Part shown: positions 1 to 6,086 of the stretch, one piece after another
Layout of the letters: every line of letters begins with the position of its first letter
How positions within the stretch are numbered: the first letter of the stretch is position 1
Assembly (NCBI GenBank): GCA_037444445.1
Contig: JBBIMK010000044.1
Span: 4,504 to 10,966, forward strand
Direction: 5' to 3'
Source: a bacterium
GTDB lineage: Bacteria; UBP7; UBA6624; JBBIMK01
DNA: 6,463 nucleotides
Position numbers and translations under genes: made by a program
Notes under the pieces: model-generated
Databases searched by the model: none
What the model saw: only the letters and a program-made list of their open reading frames with translations
What the model was told of the DNA's origin: nothing

Positions 1-352
1 CGCCCTCATTGAGGGTGGAGGGTGTGGCAGTAGGACCGGCGGTAATCTGGGGTGGCTGGTTGACATTATTCACGGTTACAGCCACATCCCCGGTAGTAGA
101 AGCGCCAAAGCTGTCCGTGATGGTCACCCGGAGAGTGAAGGTGGTGTTGGCGGAGACCTGAGGTGCGGTCCAGGTGGGGTTCTGGGCATTTGGGTTGCTG
201 AAGGTTCCCGTGGGCGATGCGGGGGAGGTCTGACTCCAGGAGTAGGAGAGGGTATCGCCATCCGGGTCGCTGGCCGTTACGGAGAGATTCGTGGCGGCGC
301 CCTCATTGAGGGTGGAGGGTGTGGCAGTAGGACCGGCGGTAATCTGGGGTGG
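1..352 (-). repeat. Tandem direct repeat with a 297-bp period (99 codons), lying inside the surface-protein gene.
   Basis: Bases 1-55 (cgccctcattgagggtggagggtgtggcagtaggaccggcggtaatctggggtgg) are identical base-for-base to 298-352. The two copies diverge from 56/353 onward. The period is an exact multiple of 3 and corresponds to one Ig-like domain unit. The array most likely continues left of the window. Confidence 0.85.
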
Positions 353-781
353 GTTGTTGGGATTACTTGTTTTGAAGGGGATTGGACTGGTTTCAGAAAA
401 ATGATTTGCCCGGTCATAAGCCCGGACGGTCAGATTGTGATTCCCATCCGGGACGGAACGAGAATTCCACGAGCAGGAGAAAACGGAGCCAGATGACTTG
501 GCAGTGTTATCCGCGCAAGCCAGAGTGGGTTCTGAAGCCACATAAAACTCCACTCTGGCGACTATGCCAGAGTCATCGCTGGCAATTGCCTTGAGAACCA
601 CTGTGCCGGAAACCGTGGCATTGGGAGTAATGCCGCTATCCGGGGTGAGGACAGGTGGGTCCGGGTTCTGCGTATCGGGTGGTTCGCCACTGCCGCCCCC
701 TCCGCACGCAGGCGGAATCACCGTTGCCAGCGTGAAAAACAAAACTTTCAGATAATCTCCCTTATGATGTATGTCAGTCAC
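1..781 (-). CDS. Partial surface/secreted lipoprotein: N-terminal signal peptide, Gly-rich linker, Ig-like domain, then tandem 99-aa PKD/He_PIG-like Ig-fold repeats. The gene continues beyond the left edge.
   Basis: I hand-translated the minus strand (codons at plus coordinates 2 mod 3) and it is open from 805 down to position 2 with no stop. It is missing from the ORF track, presumably because it has no stop in the window. N-terminus: ...(M)KVLFFTLATVIPPAC-GGGGSGEPPDTQNPDPP, a hydrophobic signal peptide plus Cys, which is lipoprotein-like. Next comes VSGTVVLKAIASDDSGIVARVEFYV...SCSWNSRSVPDGNHNLTVRAYDRANH, a typical bacterial Ig-like domain pattern. Then NPPQITAGPTATPSTLNEGAATNLSVTASDPDGDTLSYSWSQ...FTLRVTITDSFGASTTGDVAVTVNNVNQPPQITAGP..., showing the DPDGD-L-Y-W repeat signature. 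The start is ambiguous: GTG at 787 or 781, or CTG at 751 preceded by AAGGGAG. Confidence 0.8.
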   Translation of the reverse strand, partial: MTDIHHKGDYLKVLFFTLATVIPPACGGGGSGEPPDTQNPDPPVLTPDSGITPNATVSGTVVLKAIASDDSGIVARVEFYVASEPTLACADNTAKSSGSVFSCSWNSRSVPDGNHNLTVRAYDRANHFSETSPIPFKTSNPNNPPQITAGPTATPSTLNEGAATNLSVTASDPDGDTLSYSWSQTSPASPTGTFSNPNAQNPTWTAPQVSANTTFTLRVTITDSFGASTTGDVAVTVNNVNQPPQITAGPTATPSTLNEG

Positions 782-792
782 CTCCACCTTGT

Positions 793-822
793 ATTTTAAT
801 ATATGTCAATGACAAATGTCAA
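793..822 (-). promoter_or_regulatory. Putative sigma70-type promoter for the minus-strand lipoprotein gene.
   Basis: Read on the minus strand: a perfect -35 TTGACA (822..817), an 18-nt spacer (tttgtcattgacatatat), then a -10 TAAAAT (798..793). The predicted TSS is near 786. A perfect palindrome TGTCA-A-TGACA (804..814) lies inside the spacer. Confidence 0.4.
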
Positions 823-948
823 AAATCCTAAAAATACTATATATCCTCGTAGAAGATGAGTATGATGCCGTCCTGTCGATTCCGTCTATTTTTGCTTATG
901 GTTTTTTTGCCTGCCCTCAACTCTCTCTTTCTTTCGGCGGTTTTTTCA

Positions 949-964
949 GGGAGGGTGGGAAGGG
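949..964 (+). other. Canonical G-quadruplex-forming motif GGGAGGGTGGGAAGGG, upstream of eno.
   Basis: There are four G3 tracts (949-951, 953-955, 957-959, 962-964) with loops of 1, 1 and 2 nt. The motif is on the eno sense strand, ~70 nt upstream of the eno ATG, within an ~85-nt purine-rich tract (948..1034). The motif is directly visible; its function is not established. Confidence 0.5.
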
Positions 965-1034
965 AATGGATAAAGCGTGGACAGAAGGTGGAAGGAAAGG
1001 GAGGGTGTGAGTGTGGTAAGATAGGGAAGGTGAG

Positions 1035-2315
1035 ATGGGAAGGATAGAAAGAATTGTTGCGCGTGAGATTCTGGATTCCAGGGGTATGCCGACGGTTGAG
1101 TGCACGCTTACGCTTTCAACCGGAGCAAGAGGAACTGCGTCCGTTCCCTCCGGTGCTTCCCGTGGAAAGAGGGAAGCCTGTGAACTCCGGGATGGCAATC
1201 ATCGGTTTAGTGGGAAGGGAGTTCTAAAAGCGCTCAGGAACATACAGGAAGTAATCTCTCCAACTTTATGTCAGTTACCCGCTCCAACTCAGTCCCTTGT
1301 GGATGAGACCCTTCTGCTTCTGGATGGGACGCCGGATAAGAGCCGGCTGGGGGGGAATGCGATTTTAGCGGTTTCGCTTGCCTTTGGGAAAGCCTTTGCG
1401 GAGGAACAAAAAATACCTCTCTATGAATACATCCATCATTTATATCGTGGTGAATCCGCAGGATTTAAAATCCAGGAATTTCCTGTGCCCTTTATGAATC
1501 TTATCAATGGGGGTGCCCACTCAGATAGCCCCCTGTCTATTCAGGAGTTCCTCGTAATCCCTTTCACGAAAACTGGATTTTCTACCGCTCTACGCCTGGG
1601 TGCAGAAGTCTATCATACCCTTAAAAACCTGCTCTCCGAGAAAGAGCATTCCATCTCCCTGGGGGATGAAGGGGGCTTTGCGCCAAATCTTCATCAAACA
1701 CGACAGGCGCTTGAATTTTTAATAGACGCTATTGCCCGGGCAGGCTATCGCCCCGGCGAAGATATTTTCCTCGGGCTGGATGTAGCGGCCAGCATGCTTC
1801 TCCACGACTCTTCCTATCATCTGGATGATTCCACTTTCACCACTGCTTCACTCATTTCTTTTTATGAATCTCTGTGGAAAGAGTATCCGCTTCTGTCTCT
1901 GGAGGACCCATTAGGGGAGGAAGACTGGGAAGGGTGGAAAGCCCTGACCCAACGGTTAGGAAAGGATTTAATTCTCATCGGAGATGACCTGTTCGTGACT
2001 TCTTACTCCCTGTTAAATAAAGGAATTCGGGAGGGGGTGGCGAATGCAATTTTGATTAAGCCCAATCAGGTGGGAACTTTAACGGAAACCCTGAAAGTGA
2101 TACAGCGGGCTTCTGAGGTGGGGTTCAAGGTGATTGTCTCCCACCGGTCGGGTGAGACAAACGATTCTTTTATTGCCGATTTAGCCGTGGGAGTAGGGGC
2201 GTACGGAATCAAGGCAGGTGCACCCGCCCGAGGTGAACGCCTCGCCAAATACAACCGCCTCCTGATTATAGAGTCAGAACTCTCACTAACAGGAGAAAAC
2301 TTTTTTGCCAAATGA
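1035..2315 (+). CDS. eno: Enolase (phosphopyruvate hydratase).
   Basis: The 426-aa ORF shows the family signatures: ILDSRGMPTVE, SVPSGASRGKREACELRD, NGGAHSD, IQEF, GDEGGFAPN, LDVAAS, SLEDP, IGDDLFVT, ILIKPNQVGTLTE, VSHRSGETND, IKAGAPARGERLAKYNRLL. All metal-binding and catalytic positions I could check by eye are intact. An SD-like GGAAGGTGAG lies immediately upstream of the ATG. Confidence 0.97.
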   Translation: MGRIERIVAREILDSRGMPTVECTLTLSTGARGTASVPSGASRGKREACELRDGNHRFSGKGVLKALRNIQEVISPTLCQLPAPTQSLVDETLLLLDGTPDKSRLGGNAILAVSLAFGKAFAEEQKIPLYEYIHHLYRGESAGFKIQEFPVPFMNLINGGAHSDSPLSIQEFLVIPFTKTGFSTALRLGAEVYHTLKNLLSEKEHSISLGDEGGFAPNLHQTRQALEFLIDAIARAGYRPGEDIFLGLDVAASMLLHDSSYHLDDSTFTTASLISFYESLWKEYPLLSLEDPLGEEDWEGWKALTQRLGKDLILIGDDLFVTSYSLLNKGIREGVANAILIKPNQVGTLTETLKVIQRASEVGFKVIVSHRSGETNDSFIADLAVGVGAYGIKAGAPARGERLAKYNRLLIIESELSLTGENFFAK

Positions 2316-2382
2316 GCCTGCTTCTACTGTGGAAATGGCTACTCTCTGGATTGTTGACAGGTAACAATGGGGAAAATTTCAT

Positions 2383-2390
2383 TGTATAAT
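2383..2390 (+). promoter_or_regulatory. Extended -10 promoter element TGTATAAT upstream of the small ORF / NTase cassette.
   Basis: TGnTATAAT is matched perfectly at 2383..2390. The expected TSS (~7 nt downstream) coincides with the GTG start at 2398, and no SD lies in between, which would give a leaderless transcript. A perfect TTGACA at 2354..2359 is 25 nt upstream, too far to be a standard -35. Confidence 0.4.
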
Positions 2391-2397
2391 ACCCCCG

Positions 2398-2640
2398 GTG
2401 ATTCTTACGAGTAGTAAAATAAACTTTAGCAAAAAACTCTTCTGGGATTATGAAATAACAGAGCAAGACCTAAAAAAAGAGGATGTGTTAATTTTTTACA
2501 TTTCAAGAATTCTCAATAATGGGACCCGGGATGATGTCTTTGAAATTCCTTTGGAACTCATTGAGAAGCATATGGATAGGCTTTCTCTCTCAGGAAAAGT
2601 CAGAAAATTCTGGAAGTGGTATCCGGGAGGCATAAAATAA
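2398..2640 (+). CDS. Small (80 aa) protein of unknown function and putative partner/antitoxin of the downstream AbiEii-like nucleotidyltransferase.
   Basis: The ORF is GTG..TAA. Its stop is 1 nt from the TTG start of the NTase gene, and GGGAGG (2625..2630) inside its 3' end serves as the SD for the next gene. The sequence KKLFWDYEITEQDLKKEDVLIFYISRILNNGTRDDV...FWKWY resembles, from memory, small helical proteins annotated only as a DUF (I believe DUF6922; unverified) that sit upstream of short AbiEii-family genes. Codon composition is AT-rich like its neighbour. GTG is the only conventional in-frame start. Confidence 0.65.
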   Translation: MILTSSKINFSKKLFWDYEITEQDLKKEDVLIFYISRILNNGTRDDVFEIPLELIEKHMDRLSLSGKVRKFWKWYPGGIK

Positions 2641-2641
2641 T

Positions 2642-3282
2642 TTGAAGGTCTTAACAGCACTTCAGGAAGATTTCCTGTTCACTTTTTCTAAAACAACATT
2701 AAAGGATATTTTTTTTCTTACAGGTGGCACCGCTCTTTCAGCCTTTTACCTGGAGCATAAAATTTCAGAGGATATGGATTTTTTACAGAGGAAGAAGGAC
2801 AGGTGGCAAGGGTAATGCCTCTTATGCAGGATATTGTCGTAGACCTGAAAGGCGAACTGGATGTGAAACGAAGTTTCAGAAGTTACATTGAAGTCTTTAT
2901 AACAAGAGGCGAAGAACTTTTACGCTGTGATTTTGCTATGGATTCGCCCTTCCGATTAGGTGGAAAGGTTTTCAAAGGAGAGTATGGAGTATATGTAGAT
3001 AATGCCCTGGATATATCCTGCAATAAACTCTCTGCCCTTTATGATAGAGGCGACCCAGAGGACTTTGTGGATGCATACTTCATTGACAGAGAAGTCATCC
3101 CCTTTGAAAAACTGGTGGAGGAAGCGAGGAAGAAACATATTGTCCTGGATAACTATTGGCTGGCGGTCTCTCTGGCAAGAGTGGAAGACTTCAGTGTTCT
3201 TCCACGATTGCTAAAGCCAGTTACAATTGAAGAACTGAAAAGTTTTTTCCGTCAGAAAGCGCAATGGTTGATGAAGAAGTAA
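2642..3282 (+). CDS. AbiEii/AbiGii-family nucleotidyltransferase toxin-like gene, interrupted by a -1 frame break at the T6 run 2779..2784. As sequenced it is two ORFs: 2642..2815 and 2803/2815..3282.
   Basis: The N-terminal piece (frame of 2642, TTG start) reads LKVLTALQEDFLFTFSKTTLKDIFFLTGGTALSAFYLEHKISEDMDF|LQRKKDRWQG*. This carries the NTase GG(T)AL and DxD (EDMDF) motifs. The C-terminal piece (frame of 2803) reads (F)FTEEEGQVARVMPLMQDIV...CNKLSALYDRGDPEDFVDAYFI..., with the K-L-x-A-L-x-x-R...D-F-x-D motif typical of AbiEii. Joining the two at the T run gives a ~213-aa protein of typical short-AbiEii architecture. One extra T (T7) would restore the frame. Confidence 0.75.
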
Positions 3283-3369
3283 AGAAAAGGGTCTTTGAGG
3301 CCGACCCTAAGAGTTCAGGGGTGCGGGCTTCGTTCTTTCTTGTGGTAATCTTATAGGCGGAATGAAAGC

Positions 3370-5130
3370 ATGAAGCTTAAGACGAAAATTGTTGCCACGC
3401 TGGGCCCTGCCTCCTCCTCGCTGGAGACTATTAGCCAGTTGGTAGAGGCGGGGGCGAAGATCTTTCGCCTGAATTTCTCCCACGGCGATTACCCTTTCCA
3501 CTCTTCCTTGATTCAAAATGTTCGGCTGGCGGGGGAAAAACTGGGCGTGGATGTCTGCATTCTGCAAGACCTGCAGGGGCTGAAAATTCGCCTTGGAAAG
3601 TTAAAAGAGGGAAGGGTGTTCTTGAATGCAGGGGATTCAGTGACGCTATTTGAGGGGGATTACAGCGAAGCCCCCGCTGATATGGGCCTCCCTGTGATGA
3701 TGCCCAACTTCGTGGAATGGGTGGAGCCGGGGGATTTACTGATTTTAAGAGACGGTCAGGTAAAATTAGAAGTCGCAGGGAAAGCGGCGAAAAGAAAAAT
3801 GACAGCCCGAGTCGTCTGGGGCGGTGAGGTGGTCTCCCACACGGGTATTAAGGTGATGGGCGGGCGTGAACTCCCTCCCATTTTCCCCGAGAAGGACCGC
3901 CGGGACCTGGAATTCGGTCTTGCCCACGGAATTGACATCGTGGCGCTTTCTTTTGTTCGCTCCCCCGCCGACCTTCTCCTGGTTCGTTCGTATTTAGAAA
4001 AGCACGCAACTCCCCGTTTCCTCATCGCTAAAATTGAAAAGAAGGAAGCCCTGGAAAATCTCCAGGAAATCTTGAAGGAAGCGGATGGTGTGATGATTGC
4101 ACGGGGAGATCTGGGGTTGGAAATTCCCCTCTCCCGTTTGCCTCTCGTTCAGAAACAGGTGATTCAGGAGGCGAGGATGCTGGGGAAGCCGGTCATCACC
4201 GCCACGCAGATGATGGAAAGCATGATTTATAATCCTCAGCCCACAAGAGCAGAAGCGGCAGATGCAGCCAACGCCATTTTAGATGGCACGGATGCTTTGA
4301 TGCTCTCCGCAGAAACGGCTGTCGGAAAATACCCGGTGGAAGCGGTGAAGGTTCTTGCCTCCGTGGCGGAGGAGGTGGAGAAATTGCTGGAAGAGGAATG
4401 GAAAACAGGGGCGGGATTCCCCCCCTACCAGCGAAATCCCGCTTCGCGTGACACACTCGCCCACCGAATTCCTTTCACAGATTCGGTGACGGATGCCATT
4501 TCCCGTTCGGCGGTTGACATTGGGATGCAATTAGGGGCGAAAGCCATCGTGGCTCCCACCTCTTCAGGCTATACCGCAAGGATGATTTCCCGCTTTCGTG
4601 CTCCTCTGCTCATCGGCGCCTGCTCTCCGCACTTAGCCGTTCGGCGATTCCTCTCTCTCTGCTGGGGCGTTTCCCCATTTCCCATTCCGGATACGGAAAG
4701 CACAGATGAAACCATTTCTTCCTCCATCCTCTCTCTCCAGAAAGGAGGGCTAATTTCAGAAGGTGACCTGCTGGTGATTACTGCTGGCGTCCCTTCCGGC
4801 ATTGCCGGTACCACCAACCTGCTGAAAGTTCACTTTCTGGCAGACATCCTTGCCCGGGGCATCAGTGTGGGGAGTGGCTGGATCTCCGGAACCATCGGGC
4901 AGGAGTTTGCCCTTCTGAATTCTCTTCCGTCTCAACTGGATTCCCGGTTCACCTGCGTACTGGTTCGGGAGAAGGGCTCGGACATTCTCAAACGGGCGAA
5001 AGCAATGAACCTGATGGGCATCTTCGCCCTGCGAGAATTTCAACCATTGAACCCCGGGGTAGAAGTCACCCTGAACCTGGATACTGGCCTGGTGTATCGG
5101 GGGAAATTGCCCCGCCCCACACGATTATGA
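3370..5130 (+). CDS. pyk: Pyruvate kinase, long form with a C-terminal PEP-utilizer-like extra domain.
   Basis: The 586-aa ORF shows the family signatures: KIVATLGPAS, FRLNFSHGD, DLQGLKIRLG, IAKIEKKEALENL, VMIARGDLGLEIP, ATQMMESM, PTRAEAADAANAILDGTDALMLSAETAVGKYP. The ~95 C-terminal residues after ...LLKVHFL resemble the extra domain of Bacillus/Geobacillus-type PKs (GISVGSGWISG...VTLNLDTGLVYRG). Confidence 0.96.
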   Translation: MKLKTKIVATLGPASSSLETISQLVEAGAKIFRLNFSHGDYPFHSSLIQNVRLAGEKLGVDVCILQDLQGLKIRLGKLKEGRVFLNAGDSVTLFEGDYSEAPADMGLPVMMPNFVEWVEPGDLLILRDGQVKLEVAGKAAKRKMTARVVWGGEVVSHTGIKVMGGRELPPIFPEKDRRDLEFGLAHGIDIVALSFVRSPADLLLVRSYLEKHATPRFLIAKIEKKEALENLQEILKEADGVMIARGDLGLEIPLSRLPLVQKQVIQEARMLGKPVITATQMMESMIYNPQPTRAEAADAANAILDGTDALMLSAETAVGKYPVEAVKVLASVAEEVEKLLEEEWKTGAGFPPYQRNPASRDTLAHRIPFTDSVTDAISRSAVDIGMQLGAKAIVAPTSSGYTARMISRFRAPLLIGACSPHLAVRRFLSLCWGVSPFPIPDTESTDETISSSILSLQKGGLISEGDLLVITAGVPSGIAGTTNLLKVHFLADILARGISVGSGWISGTIGQEFALLNSLPSQLDSRFTCVLVREKGSDILKRAKAMNLMGIFALREFQPLNPGVEVTLNLDTGLVYRGKLPRPTRL

Positions 5131-6086
5131 AAGCCTTAATTACTGGAATCACTGGATTTGTGGGAAGTCATCTCGCAGAGCATTTGCTGAAGCAGGGGGT
5201 GGAAGTGTGGGGCACCACTCGCCGACGAAGCCCCCGGGATAATATCTCTCATCTTCTGGATTCTATCCGGCTGGTGGAAATGGACCTGAGGGATGCCACC
5301 GCGGTAGTAGAAGCCTTGAACGAGGCTGAACCTGAGTGGATTTTTCATTTAGCGGCTCAGAGTTTTGTGCCCACTTCGTGGCGTGCGCCCGATGAAACCT
5401 TCCAGTCCAATTGCATCGGCCAGATTCACTTGTTTGAAGCCCTCCGAGTTCTCAAAGCATCTCCGAAAGTTCTAATCGCTGGCTCTTCCGAAGAATATGG
5501 AATGGTTCTCCCGGAAGAATTACCGATTACGGAAGAGAATCCATTACGCCCCTTAAGCCCTTACGGCGTCAGCAAGGTGGCTCAAGACCTTTTGGGGTGG
5601 CAGTATCACAAAAGTTACGGCCTCCCGGTGGTTCGCACGAGAGCGTTTAACCACACCGGCCCCCGCAGAGGTTCCACCTTCGTCTCCTCTAACTTCTGCC
5701 ATCAGTGCGCCTTGATACAGAGGGGTAAGAAAGAACCTGTGGTGGAAACGGGAAACCTGGATGCGGTGAGGGATTTCACGGATGTCCGGGATGTGGTGAG
5801 AGCCTATGTCCTGGCGCTGGAGAAGGGAGTTCCCGGCGAGGTTTATAACATTGCCTCCGGCGCGGGAGTTCGCATCGGGGATTTACTTCAAATGGTGTTA
5901 GAAGTAGCAGGGCTAAAGGGGAAGGTGGAGATTCGCTCCGACCCATCTCGCATCCGCCCCTCGGATGTTCCCGTGCTAATTGGCGACGCTTCCAAATTCC
6001 GTGCCCTCACCGGCTGGATGCCACATATCCCCCTTGACCAAACTCTCTCCGACCTGTATCACTACTGGCTGGAGCAACTGAAGTAA
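5127..6086 (+). CDS. Extended-SDR NAD(P)-dependent epimerase/dehydratase of the GDP-mannose 4,6-dehydratase / GDP-6-deoxy-D-mannose reductase (Rmd)-like family.
   Basis: The 319-aa ORF has a Rossmann motif ITGITGFVGSHL, the catalytic SSEEYG...SPYGVSK (S...YxxxK), RAFNHTGPRRGSTFV (the GMD/Rmd-type NH-x-GP-R motif), GNLDAVRDFTDVRDVVRAY and GEVYNIASG. By eye it aligns along its whole length with Rmd-type GDP-4-keto-6-deoxymannose reductases. Its ATG overlaps the pyk stop (ATGA). Exact substrate specificity cannot be assigned from sequence alone. Confidence 0.88.
   Translation: MKALITGITGFVGSHLAEHLLKQGVEVWGTTRRRSPRDNISHLLDSIRLVEMDLRDATAVVEALNEAEPEWIFHLAAQSFVPTSWRAPDETFQSNCIGQIHLFEALRVLKASPKVLIAGSSEEYGMVLPEELPITEENPLRPLSPYGVSKVAQDLLGWQYHKSYGLPVVRTRAFNHTGPRRGSTFVSSNFCHQCALIQRGKKEPVVETGNLDAVRDFTDVRDVVRAYVLALEKGVPGEVYNIASGAGVRIGDLLQMVLEVAGLKGKVEIRSDPSRIRPSDVPVLIGDASKFRALTGWMPHIPLDQTLSDLYHYWLEQLK

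Follow-up and report, generated by a model that had tools for sequence, protein, structure and literature searches.

A putative toxin-antitoxin-like module of an AbiEii-family nucleotidyltransferase and a short DUF6922-like partner, probably decayed, between the enolase and pyruvate kinase genes of a UBP7 bacterium

Introduction

AbiE is an abortive infection (Abi) system that is classed as a type IV toxin-antitoxin (TA) system and, by a recent proposal, as type VII. Its toxin AbiEii and the MenT toxins are DUF1814 nucleotidyltransferases (NTases), an actively studied group in which it is an open question how unrelated antitoxins all switch the toxins off. Here we describe a stretch of 6,463 nt from a bacterium of the UBP7 lineage (GenBank assembly GCA_037444445.1, contig JBBIMK010000044.1, positions 4,504 to 10,966 of the forward strand), hereafter the window, in which a cassette made of a gene for an 80-aa protein (the partner) and of an NTase gene lies between the enolase gene eno and the pyruvate kinase gene pyk. 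In the reading that we favour, and hold to be reasonably probable, the window carries a horizontally acquired and now degenerate TA-like module, with the NTase as toxin and the partner as an antitoxin-like protein.

Among the described systems, MenT1, MenT3 and MenT4 act on tRNA acceptor ends (PMC7450476, PMC10435456). MenA1, an antitoxin of only 68 aa without DNA-binding domain, neutralises MenT1, a toxin of the DUF1814 superfamily, and thus gives a precedent for short antitoxins of this group (PMC10435456). Upon antitoxin binding, MenT3 and MenT1 are auto-phosphorylated at S78 and T39, respectively, in the loop before the DxD motif (PMC10435456, PMC11375011), and such antitoxin-induced toxin auto-phosphorylation has been described for MenA1, MenA3 and, latest, AbiEi (PMC11375011; bioRxiv 10.64898/2026.01.19.700257). 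According to Cai et al., the best structural match of both MenT3 and MenT4 is JHP933, whose gene has a small overlapping neighbour upstream, described as a "classic TA configuration" (PMC7450476).

Results

A short nucleotidyltransferase of the AbiEii family

The NTase gene of the window is interrupted, and one T added to a run of six Ts (nt 2779–2784) yields a repaired protein of 213 aa. This protein matched the Pfam family AbiEii (PF08843) with 44.5 bits (cut-off 22.5, E 2.4e-11), and its N-terminal fragment alone passed as well, with 33.8 bits (E 4e-8). PF08843 is also present in the intact orthologue encoded by L001, a metagenomic contig, and in 120 listed homologues. In addition, 16 AbiEii models of PADLOC matched the repaired NTase, and the NCBIfam models gave no meaningful match for either protein of the cassette.

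Motifs I and II (hG[GS], DxD and a third acidic residue) are found in the window NTase as GGTALSAFYLEHKISEDMDF and CDFAMD, the former containing the GG...SEDMDF pattern. Motif III reads CNKLSALYDR and motif IV EDFVD, with the family-invariant Lys140 replaced by Glu and both D141 and D144 kept. In an alignment of 56 homologues (alignment A5) the residues G28, G29, R40, S42, D120, D124, K129, R136, K140, D141 and D144 were invariant and D44, D46 and D97 near-invariant. The invariant Ser lies two residues before the DxD (S42 in R-x-S-E-D-x-D) and is kept in the window. When the profile of the 56 homologues was aligned by hhalign with a canonical AbiEii of 267 aa, a probability of 96.7% was obtained, with GGTAL...R-x-S-E-D-L-D-F, K-L-x-A-L-x-x-R and [KR]-D-x-x-D (motifs I, III and IV) in register. 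The AbiEi-AbiEii pair of Streptococcus agalactiae and Lactococcus thus resembles our cassette in its PF08843 toxin, whose motifs I–IV align with those of this NTase subfamily, and in its bicistronic arrangement with the partner upstream, and differs in the length of the compared toxin, the NTase described here being about 50 aa shorter.

The AlphaFold2 (AF2) model built from the same alignment reached a pLDDT of 94. Its best fold match was JHP933, from the Helicobacter pylori plasticity zone (PDB 4O8S and 4OK0; E 3e-8, TM 0.62–0.65), followed by CCA-adding enzymes and terminal uridylyltransferases. Like the window NTase, JHP933 has a small gene directly before it (jhp0932), but sequence identity between the two NTases is only 19–20%, and the protein encoded upstream of a JHP933-like gene on a Campylobacter plasmid has no similarity to the partner family. 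Judged from motifs and profile matches, gene 2 of the cassette is a short (~213 aa) NTase of the AbiEii/DUF1814 (MenT-type) family. The original prediction, drawn from the bare sequence, had read these motifs in gene 2 and implied that its frame needed repair; both points hold.

The partner belongs to a conserved family distinct from AbiEi and MenA1

The product of gene 1 gave a marginal match with the Pfam family DUF6922 (PF21956; 28.6 bits, cut-off 27, model positions 1–39 of 52), and several clear members of its family fall below this cut-off or have no match. The sole other match, a weak one, was with phrog_31050, whose function is not assigned (E 3e-4). A word-indexed search returned 258 homologues, which among the 120 listed are 66–101 aa long and either unnamed or called "hypothetical". 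By exhaustive profile search, 106 representative clusters at 50% identity were recovered, nearly all of standalone proteins of 70–140 aa. The family signature is L-x-W-D-Y ... Y-L-S-R-x-L-N-x-G ... I-P ... V-R-K-F-W-E-W-Y-L. In two distant members, P0326 (182 aa) and P0329 (201 aa), the partner-like domain is duplicated in tandem, a hint that it acts as a dimer.

The AF2 model of the partner is all-alpha, with six short helices (pLDDT 79). Foldseek comparison of this model with the PDB gave no significant match (best E 2.5) and no winged helix-turn-helix (wHTH) fold, and comparison with BFVD gave no significant match either (best E 2.0). The partner profile retrieved no chain at E ≤ 10 from all PDB chain sequences, MenA1 included; the AbiEi Pfam models did not match the partner, and hhalign with a canonical AbiEi returned a probability of 1.6%. 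Since no PDB match was obtained by profile or by fold, and the AbiEi alignment was at this level, the partner is neither AbiEi-like nor MenA1-like by the tests applied. Homology of the partner with AbiEi, MenA1, the JHP933-like upstream protein or any PDB or viral structure was therefore rejected, none being detected.

The differences from both described antitoxins are also apparent in their architecture. AbiEi is a protein of about 200–300 aa with a wHTH (PF13338) and a C-terminal PF09407 domain, neither of which is matched by the partner. The MenA1-MenT1 pair of Mycobacterium tuberculosis (Rv0078B-Rv0078A) is closer in layout, as a DUF1814 NTase immediately downstream of a very short partner, and the Ser/Thr found in MenT1 in the loop ahead of the DxD corresponds to the invariant Ser42 of our NTase family. 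On the contrary, MenA1 folds into one long and one short helix, belongs to a tiny family (21 homologues reported) and showed neither a sequence-profile nor a fold match to the partner.

The original prediction was right that the partner is not a wHTH protein of AbiEi type; a short partner lacking such a domain is, however, not a novelty in itself, MenA1 being a precedent. Its proposal of an uncharacterised partner class stands in so far as no paper naming DUF6922 or PF21956 was found in the literature searched, and is qualified by the marginal DUF6922 match. The toxin family, and a short antitoxin without HTH that acts on one DUF1814 toxin, had thus been described before. The novelty lies in which protein accompanies the NTase, namely a member of a conserved, medium-sized family that matches no known fold and is tightly associated with a subfamily of compact NTases in different phyla.

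Pairing of the two genes across loci

In the window the two genes are separated by 1 nt, the stop codon TAA of the partner gene (nt 2638–2640) being followed by the TTG start codon of the NTase gene at nt 2642. A Shine-Dalgarno-like GGGAGG, 11 nt before this TTG, lies inside the partner gene. The tight coupling originally described is hence present, and the same arrangement recurs elsewhere. A metagenome scan seeded with the partner alignment gave 80 loci, which were classified with hidden Markov models (HMMs) of both families; 72 were evaluable and eight were not. An intact NTase gene was found on the same strand downstream of the partner in 48 of the 72, with a gap from HMM end to HMM start of mostly 1–30 nt. 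In six further loci the NTase match ran off the contig end, and nine were scored as NTase remnants, about seven of them genuine, since L090 stops ~20 nt short of the end of its contig and the NTase of L098 is probably complete. Remnants included, an NTase is thus located downstream of the partner in about 63 of the 72 evaluable loci. Dereplication at 90% identity left 55 clusters, 29 of which held intact-NTase loci only.

The same result was obtained outside the scan. Five loci found by their partner gene in species-representative genomes (Ignavibacteria, a Pseudomonadota metagenome-assembled genome (MAG), KSB1 and unclassified MAGs) had an NTase or remnant directly downstream in 5/5 cases and, conversely, four NTase homologues of 50–74% identity had a gene for a 77–95-aa partner immediately upstream in 4/4, in neighbourhoods with radical-SAM genes, an aldehyde dehydrogenase gene, pabB/aminotransferase and cysN. 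The partner also lies directly upstream of the NTase, on the same strand, in L001, L008–L012 and L013–L022, each time in a different neighbourhood. The pairing across unrelated contexts is real and conserved as a bicistronic arrangement, as the original prediction had expected of the 80-aa family, and the 80-aa family provides the cognate companion encoded just before these NTases, spread across phyla.

In several loci only part of the NTase gene is left: the C-terminal 57–66 aa in L002–L007, L025 and L060, the N-terminal 25–72 aa in L012, L030 and L070. Other copies have a deleted N-terminus (L056), an internal deletion (L008) or a frameshift at a position different from that of the window (L028). 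These lesions are independent and stand beside an intact partner gene; decay of the putative toxin is seen at about 10% of the loci, and the window adds a further example. Such asymmetric decay, with the NTase lost and the partner kept, is the pattern expected of a toxin-antidote pair, because an antidote left without its toxin stays harmless.

A different role for the 80-aa protein would be that of a transcriptional regulator, of a specificity or sensor subunit, or of an NTase activator, as in a two-component enzyme or a CapRel-like sensor-effector. The acidic NTase and mildly basic partner would suit such a role, as would the orphan and tandem-duplicated partner-like proteins. A natural fusion at L105 (nt 1491–2489, P0308), a single 332-aa ORF with a partner-like domain (residues 28–93), a linker of ~27 aa and an NTase (AbiEii match at 124–264), hints at a cis-acting variant and would be more in keeping with cis-regulation or sensing than with a labile antitoxin. 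We nevertheless consider this alternative unlikely: neither an HTH nor any other DNA-binding fold was detected in the fold searches of PDB and BFVD, the order of a small upstream and a large downstream gene at 1–30 nt is the classical antitoxin-toxin layout, and the NTase was lost repeatedly while the partner stayed, as would be expected of a toxin and its harmless antidote.

Several points weigh against the TA interpretation as a whole. The putative antitoxin role of the partner is deduced from gene order, tight coupling, co-occurrence and analogy. Structures of MenT toxins were not among the best 50 fold matches of the NTase model. The median pI is 5.4 for the NTase family and 7.9 for the partner family (8.9 for the window partner), the reverse of many type II pairs. 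In nine of the 72 evaluable loci the NTase was missing although the contig continued for 700 nt or more beyond the partner. The L105 fusion, besides suiting a regulatory or sensor arrangement, comes from one short Logan contig and may be an assembly artefact. Finally, a divergent subgroup (…PVNPxLVWDYxIPP…RRFWEWYF…) includes orphan partner-like genes that are followed by no NTase and adjoin other TA genes.

As to the surroundings of these orphans, a convergent pair of canonical AbiEi (273 aa) and AbiEii (267 aa) is located nearby in L075 (nt 2131–4370), and a PIN-domain toxin pair in L082 and L099. In L049 (nt 2989–6066) and L051 (nt 2992–6073) an orphan partner gene, coding for 102 aa with a lengthened C-terminus, immediately precedes a gene of ~920–950 aa resembling, by eye, pyruvate phosphate dikinase/phosphoenolpyruvate synthase; if so, this would be a carbon-metabolism neighbour again, probably by coincidence.

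Probable decay of the window copy

The NTase gene of the window is not a single ORF but is split into two parts in different frames (Table 1), which join only when one T is added to the T6 run. The L001 contig, 95.6% identical across nt 119–5311 of the window, has the same order eno-partner-NTase-pyk, T7 in place of T6 and an intact NTase of 213 aa, to which the repaired window protein is 94.8% identical. Between the two sequences, nonsynonymous and synonymous codon differences number 11 and 5 in the NTase gene, as compared with 17 and 40 in pyk and 28 and 37 in eno. The replacements in the window NTase include R40K, K140E and G168V, at sites invariant or near-invariant in the 56 homologues. 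In the partner gene, the ATG of L001 is changed to ACG, so that a GTG 9 nt farther upstream remains, and Pro takes the place of the near-invariant Leu76 (L76P). From the frameshift, the three NTase replacements, the lost partner ATG and L76P we conclude that the module has probably decayed; the window copy is most likely a pseudogene, degenerate rather than functional, and hardly the working minimal defence module originally envisaged.

One point counts against this decay: the T-run deletion could be a homopolymer error of sequencing or assembly, in which case the module would be intact and functional. The missing T, one base in a 6/7-T homopolymer, is indeed the sole frame-breaking lesion, the rest of the NTase ORF is open and closely similar to the intact L001 protein, and the catalytic carboxylates are all still present, as is the Lys motif. 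On the contrary, the public record of the contig likewise calls only a 155-aa NTase fragment (P0055), the NTase has three replacements at conserved sites and a nonsynonymous:synonymous ratio of 11:5, the partner gene carries lesions of its own, and independent toxin decay is common in the family. For these reasons we regard an intact module as rather improbable.

A further possibility concerns the sequence around the break. The 0-frame at nt 2777–2787 reads GAU UUU UUA CAG, in which U UUU UUA (nt 2779–2785) is a classical X XXY YYZ slippery heptamer; a −1 slip there would give ...MDFLTEEEGQV... and recover the conserved frame, so that full-length NTase might be made at a regulated low level by programmed −1 ribosomal frameshifting. 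The site is not conserved in relatives and is probably coincidental. The closest relative, L001, has T7 and a single ORF, the NTase is single-frame in 48/48 intact metagenome members and in 56/56 members of alignment A5, and the other frameshifted copy, L028, breaks elsewhere; no stimulatory structure downstream of the heptamer was noted, though no search aimed at one was made. Given the single reading frame of L001 and of every intact homologue, programmed frameshifting was rejected as highly improbable, although some leakage of full-length NTase from the broken allele is conceivable.

Probable horizontal acquisition of the cassette

The cassette is an AT-rich islet, as originally noted: GC content is 35.0% in the partner gene and 41.2% in the NTase gene, versus 49.8% in eno and 54.6% in pyk. 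A cassette lower in GC than the sequence on either side was likewise seen in 32 of 37 other loci (median difference −5.5 GC points). Relatives of the cassette occupy unrelated gene contexts in different lineages. Such foreign composition and varied context, which agree with the horizontal insertion put forward before, suggest that the cassette was acquired horizontally between eno and pyk. Direct or inverted repeats flanking it were only short and at chance level, and no integrase or transposase was found in the window. No relatives were found in viral contigs, and those on plasmids or phages, four plasmids and one phage record, are only distant (29–33% identity), on which ground a mobile-element or phage origin was rejected.

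The context could also suit an NTase subfamily that is not toxic at all, that is, a benign RNA- or small-molecule-modifying enzyme with a co-translated accessory factor, with an accessory role in metabolism or regulation. A link to an antitoxin or proven toxicity is not a feature of every DUF1814 protein (PMC7450476), the cassette sits among housekeeping genes, most loci have no adjoining mobile-element or defence genes, and viral relatives were not found. Yet the catalytic motifs common to proven toxins are conserved, the distribution across phyla is patchy and the composition foreign, the cassette decays frequently, and some copies adjoin other TA genes (MazE, PIN, AbiE). A benign enzyme is in our view quite unlikely, and the TA-like module is retained as the preferred interpretation.

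Organisation of the window

The features of the window are listed in Table 1.

Table 1. Features of the window and the evidence on which each is placed
Feature	Position (nt)	Strand	Evidence or remarks
Enolase (eno), left flank of the cassette	1035–2315	+	Pfam Enolase_N, Enolase_C
Promoter-like site	2361–2390	+	GTAACA, 18-nt spacer, TATAAT at 2385–2390; weak evidence
Partner gene, DUF6922-like, putative antitoxin, 80 aa, GTG start	2398–2640	+	ORF, PF21956, family alignments, AF2 model
GGGAGG, Shine-Dalgarno-like for the NTase, within the 3' end of the partner gene	2625–2630	+	Read off the sequence
NTase N-terminal fragment, 57 aa, TTG start, motif I, premature stop after the frameshift	2642–2815	+	ORF, AbiEii E 4e-8
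T6 homopolymer, site of the 1-nt deletion	2779–2784	+	Alignment to L001 (T7)
NTase C-terminal part, −1 frame; CDFAxD, CNKLSALxDR, (K>E)DFVD (motif IV)	~2785–3282	+	Repaired translation
Pyruvate kinase (pyk), right flank of the cassette	3370–5130	+	Pfam PK, PK_C
GDP-mannose-dehydratase-like gene	5127–6086	+	ORF list, Pfam

Upstream of the cassette, a perfect TATAAT is preceded at 18 nt by the −35-like GTAACA (10 of 12 matches in all). An extended −10 element of the cassette's own had been proposed; the −10 hexamer is there, but the TG abuts it directly and is out of the TGn register of the canonical extended −10, and promoter-like sites in this region were no more numerous than in shuffled sequence. 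Rfam and tRNA scans of the whole window gave no matches.

At the cassette border (nt 2295–2315), the enolase C-terminus of the window is 7 residues longer (…GENFFAK) than that of L001, in which a stop codon stands in place of a Gly codon of the window. The pyruvate kinase has 586 aa, of which PK_C ends at residue 488 and the last ~100 residues (nt 4840–5130) have no Pfam match; the end of pyk and the beginning of the gene after it share 4 nt (ATGA, nt 5127–5130). On the minus strand, nt 1–760 (58% GC, no listed ORF) hold the 5' portion of a gene continuing beyond the window edge; its L001 counterpart codes for 426 aa with Big_7, He_PIG and Cadherin-like Ig repeats. These domain repeats are reflected in a direct repeat of ~55 nt, almost perfect, at nt 1–55 and 299–354.

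Discussion

By analogy with the MenT toxins and AbiEii, an intact NTase of this subfamily would add nucleotides to RNA 3' ends, most likely to tRNA acceptor ends, and translation would be blocked. The 80-aa partner would most likely be the antitoxin of the NTase, probably neutralising it through direct binding, and may also trigger auto-phosphorylation of the NTase at Ser42, as happens with the unrelated MenA1, MenA3 and AbiEi. In the window, the toxin would have been inactivated by the T-run deletion, and further damaging substitutions in both genes would make the module a decaying remnant.

More tentatively, and as a possibility in which we place less confidence, the DUF6922-like proteins of 75–100 aa may form a third, structurally new class of antitoxins for DUF1814 NTases, neutralising them by binding-triggered auto-phosphorylation at Ser42. 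This class would be unrelated to AbiEi/MenA3 and to MenA1, and spread across many uncultured bacterial phyla.

For the host, a remnant of this kind would have little biological consequence. For the family, a partner conserved beside a compact NTase of 213 aa offers an independent system in which the generality of antitoxin-induced auto-phosphorylation can be probed and, if the tentative proposal is true, this rule would extend to a third unrelated antitoxin fold.

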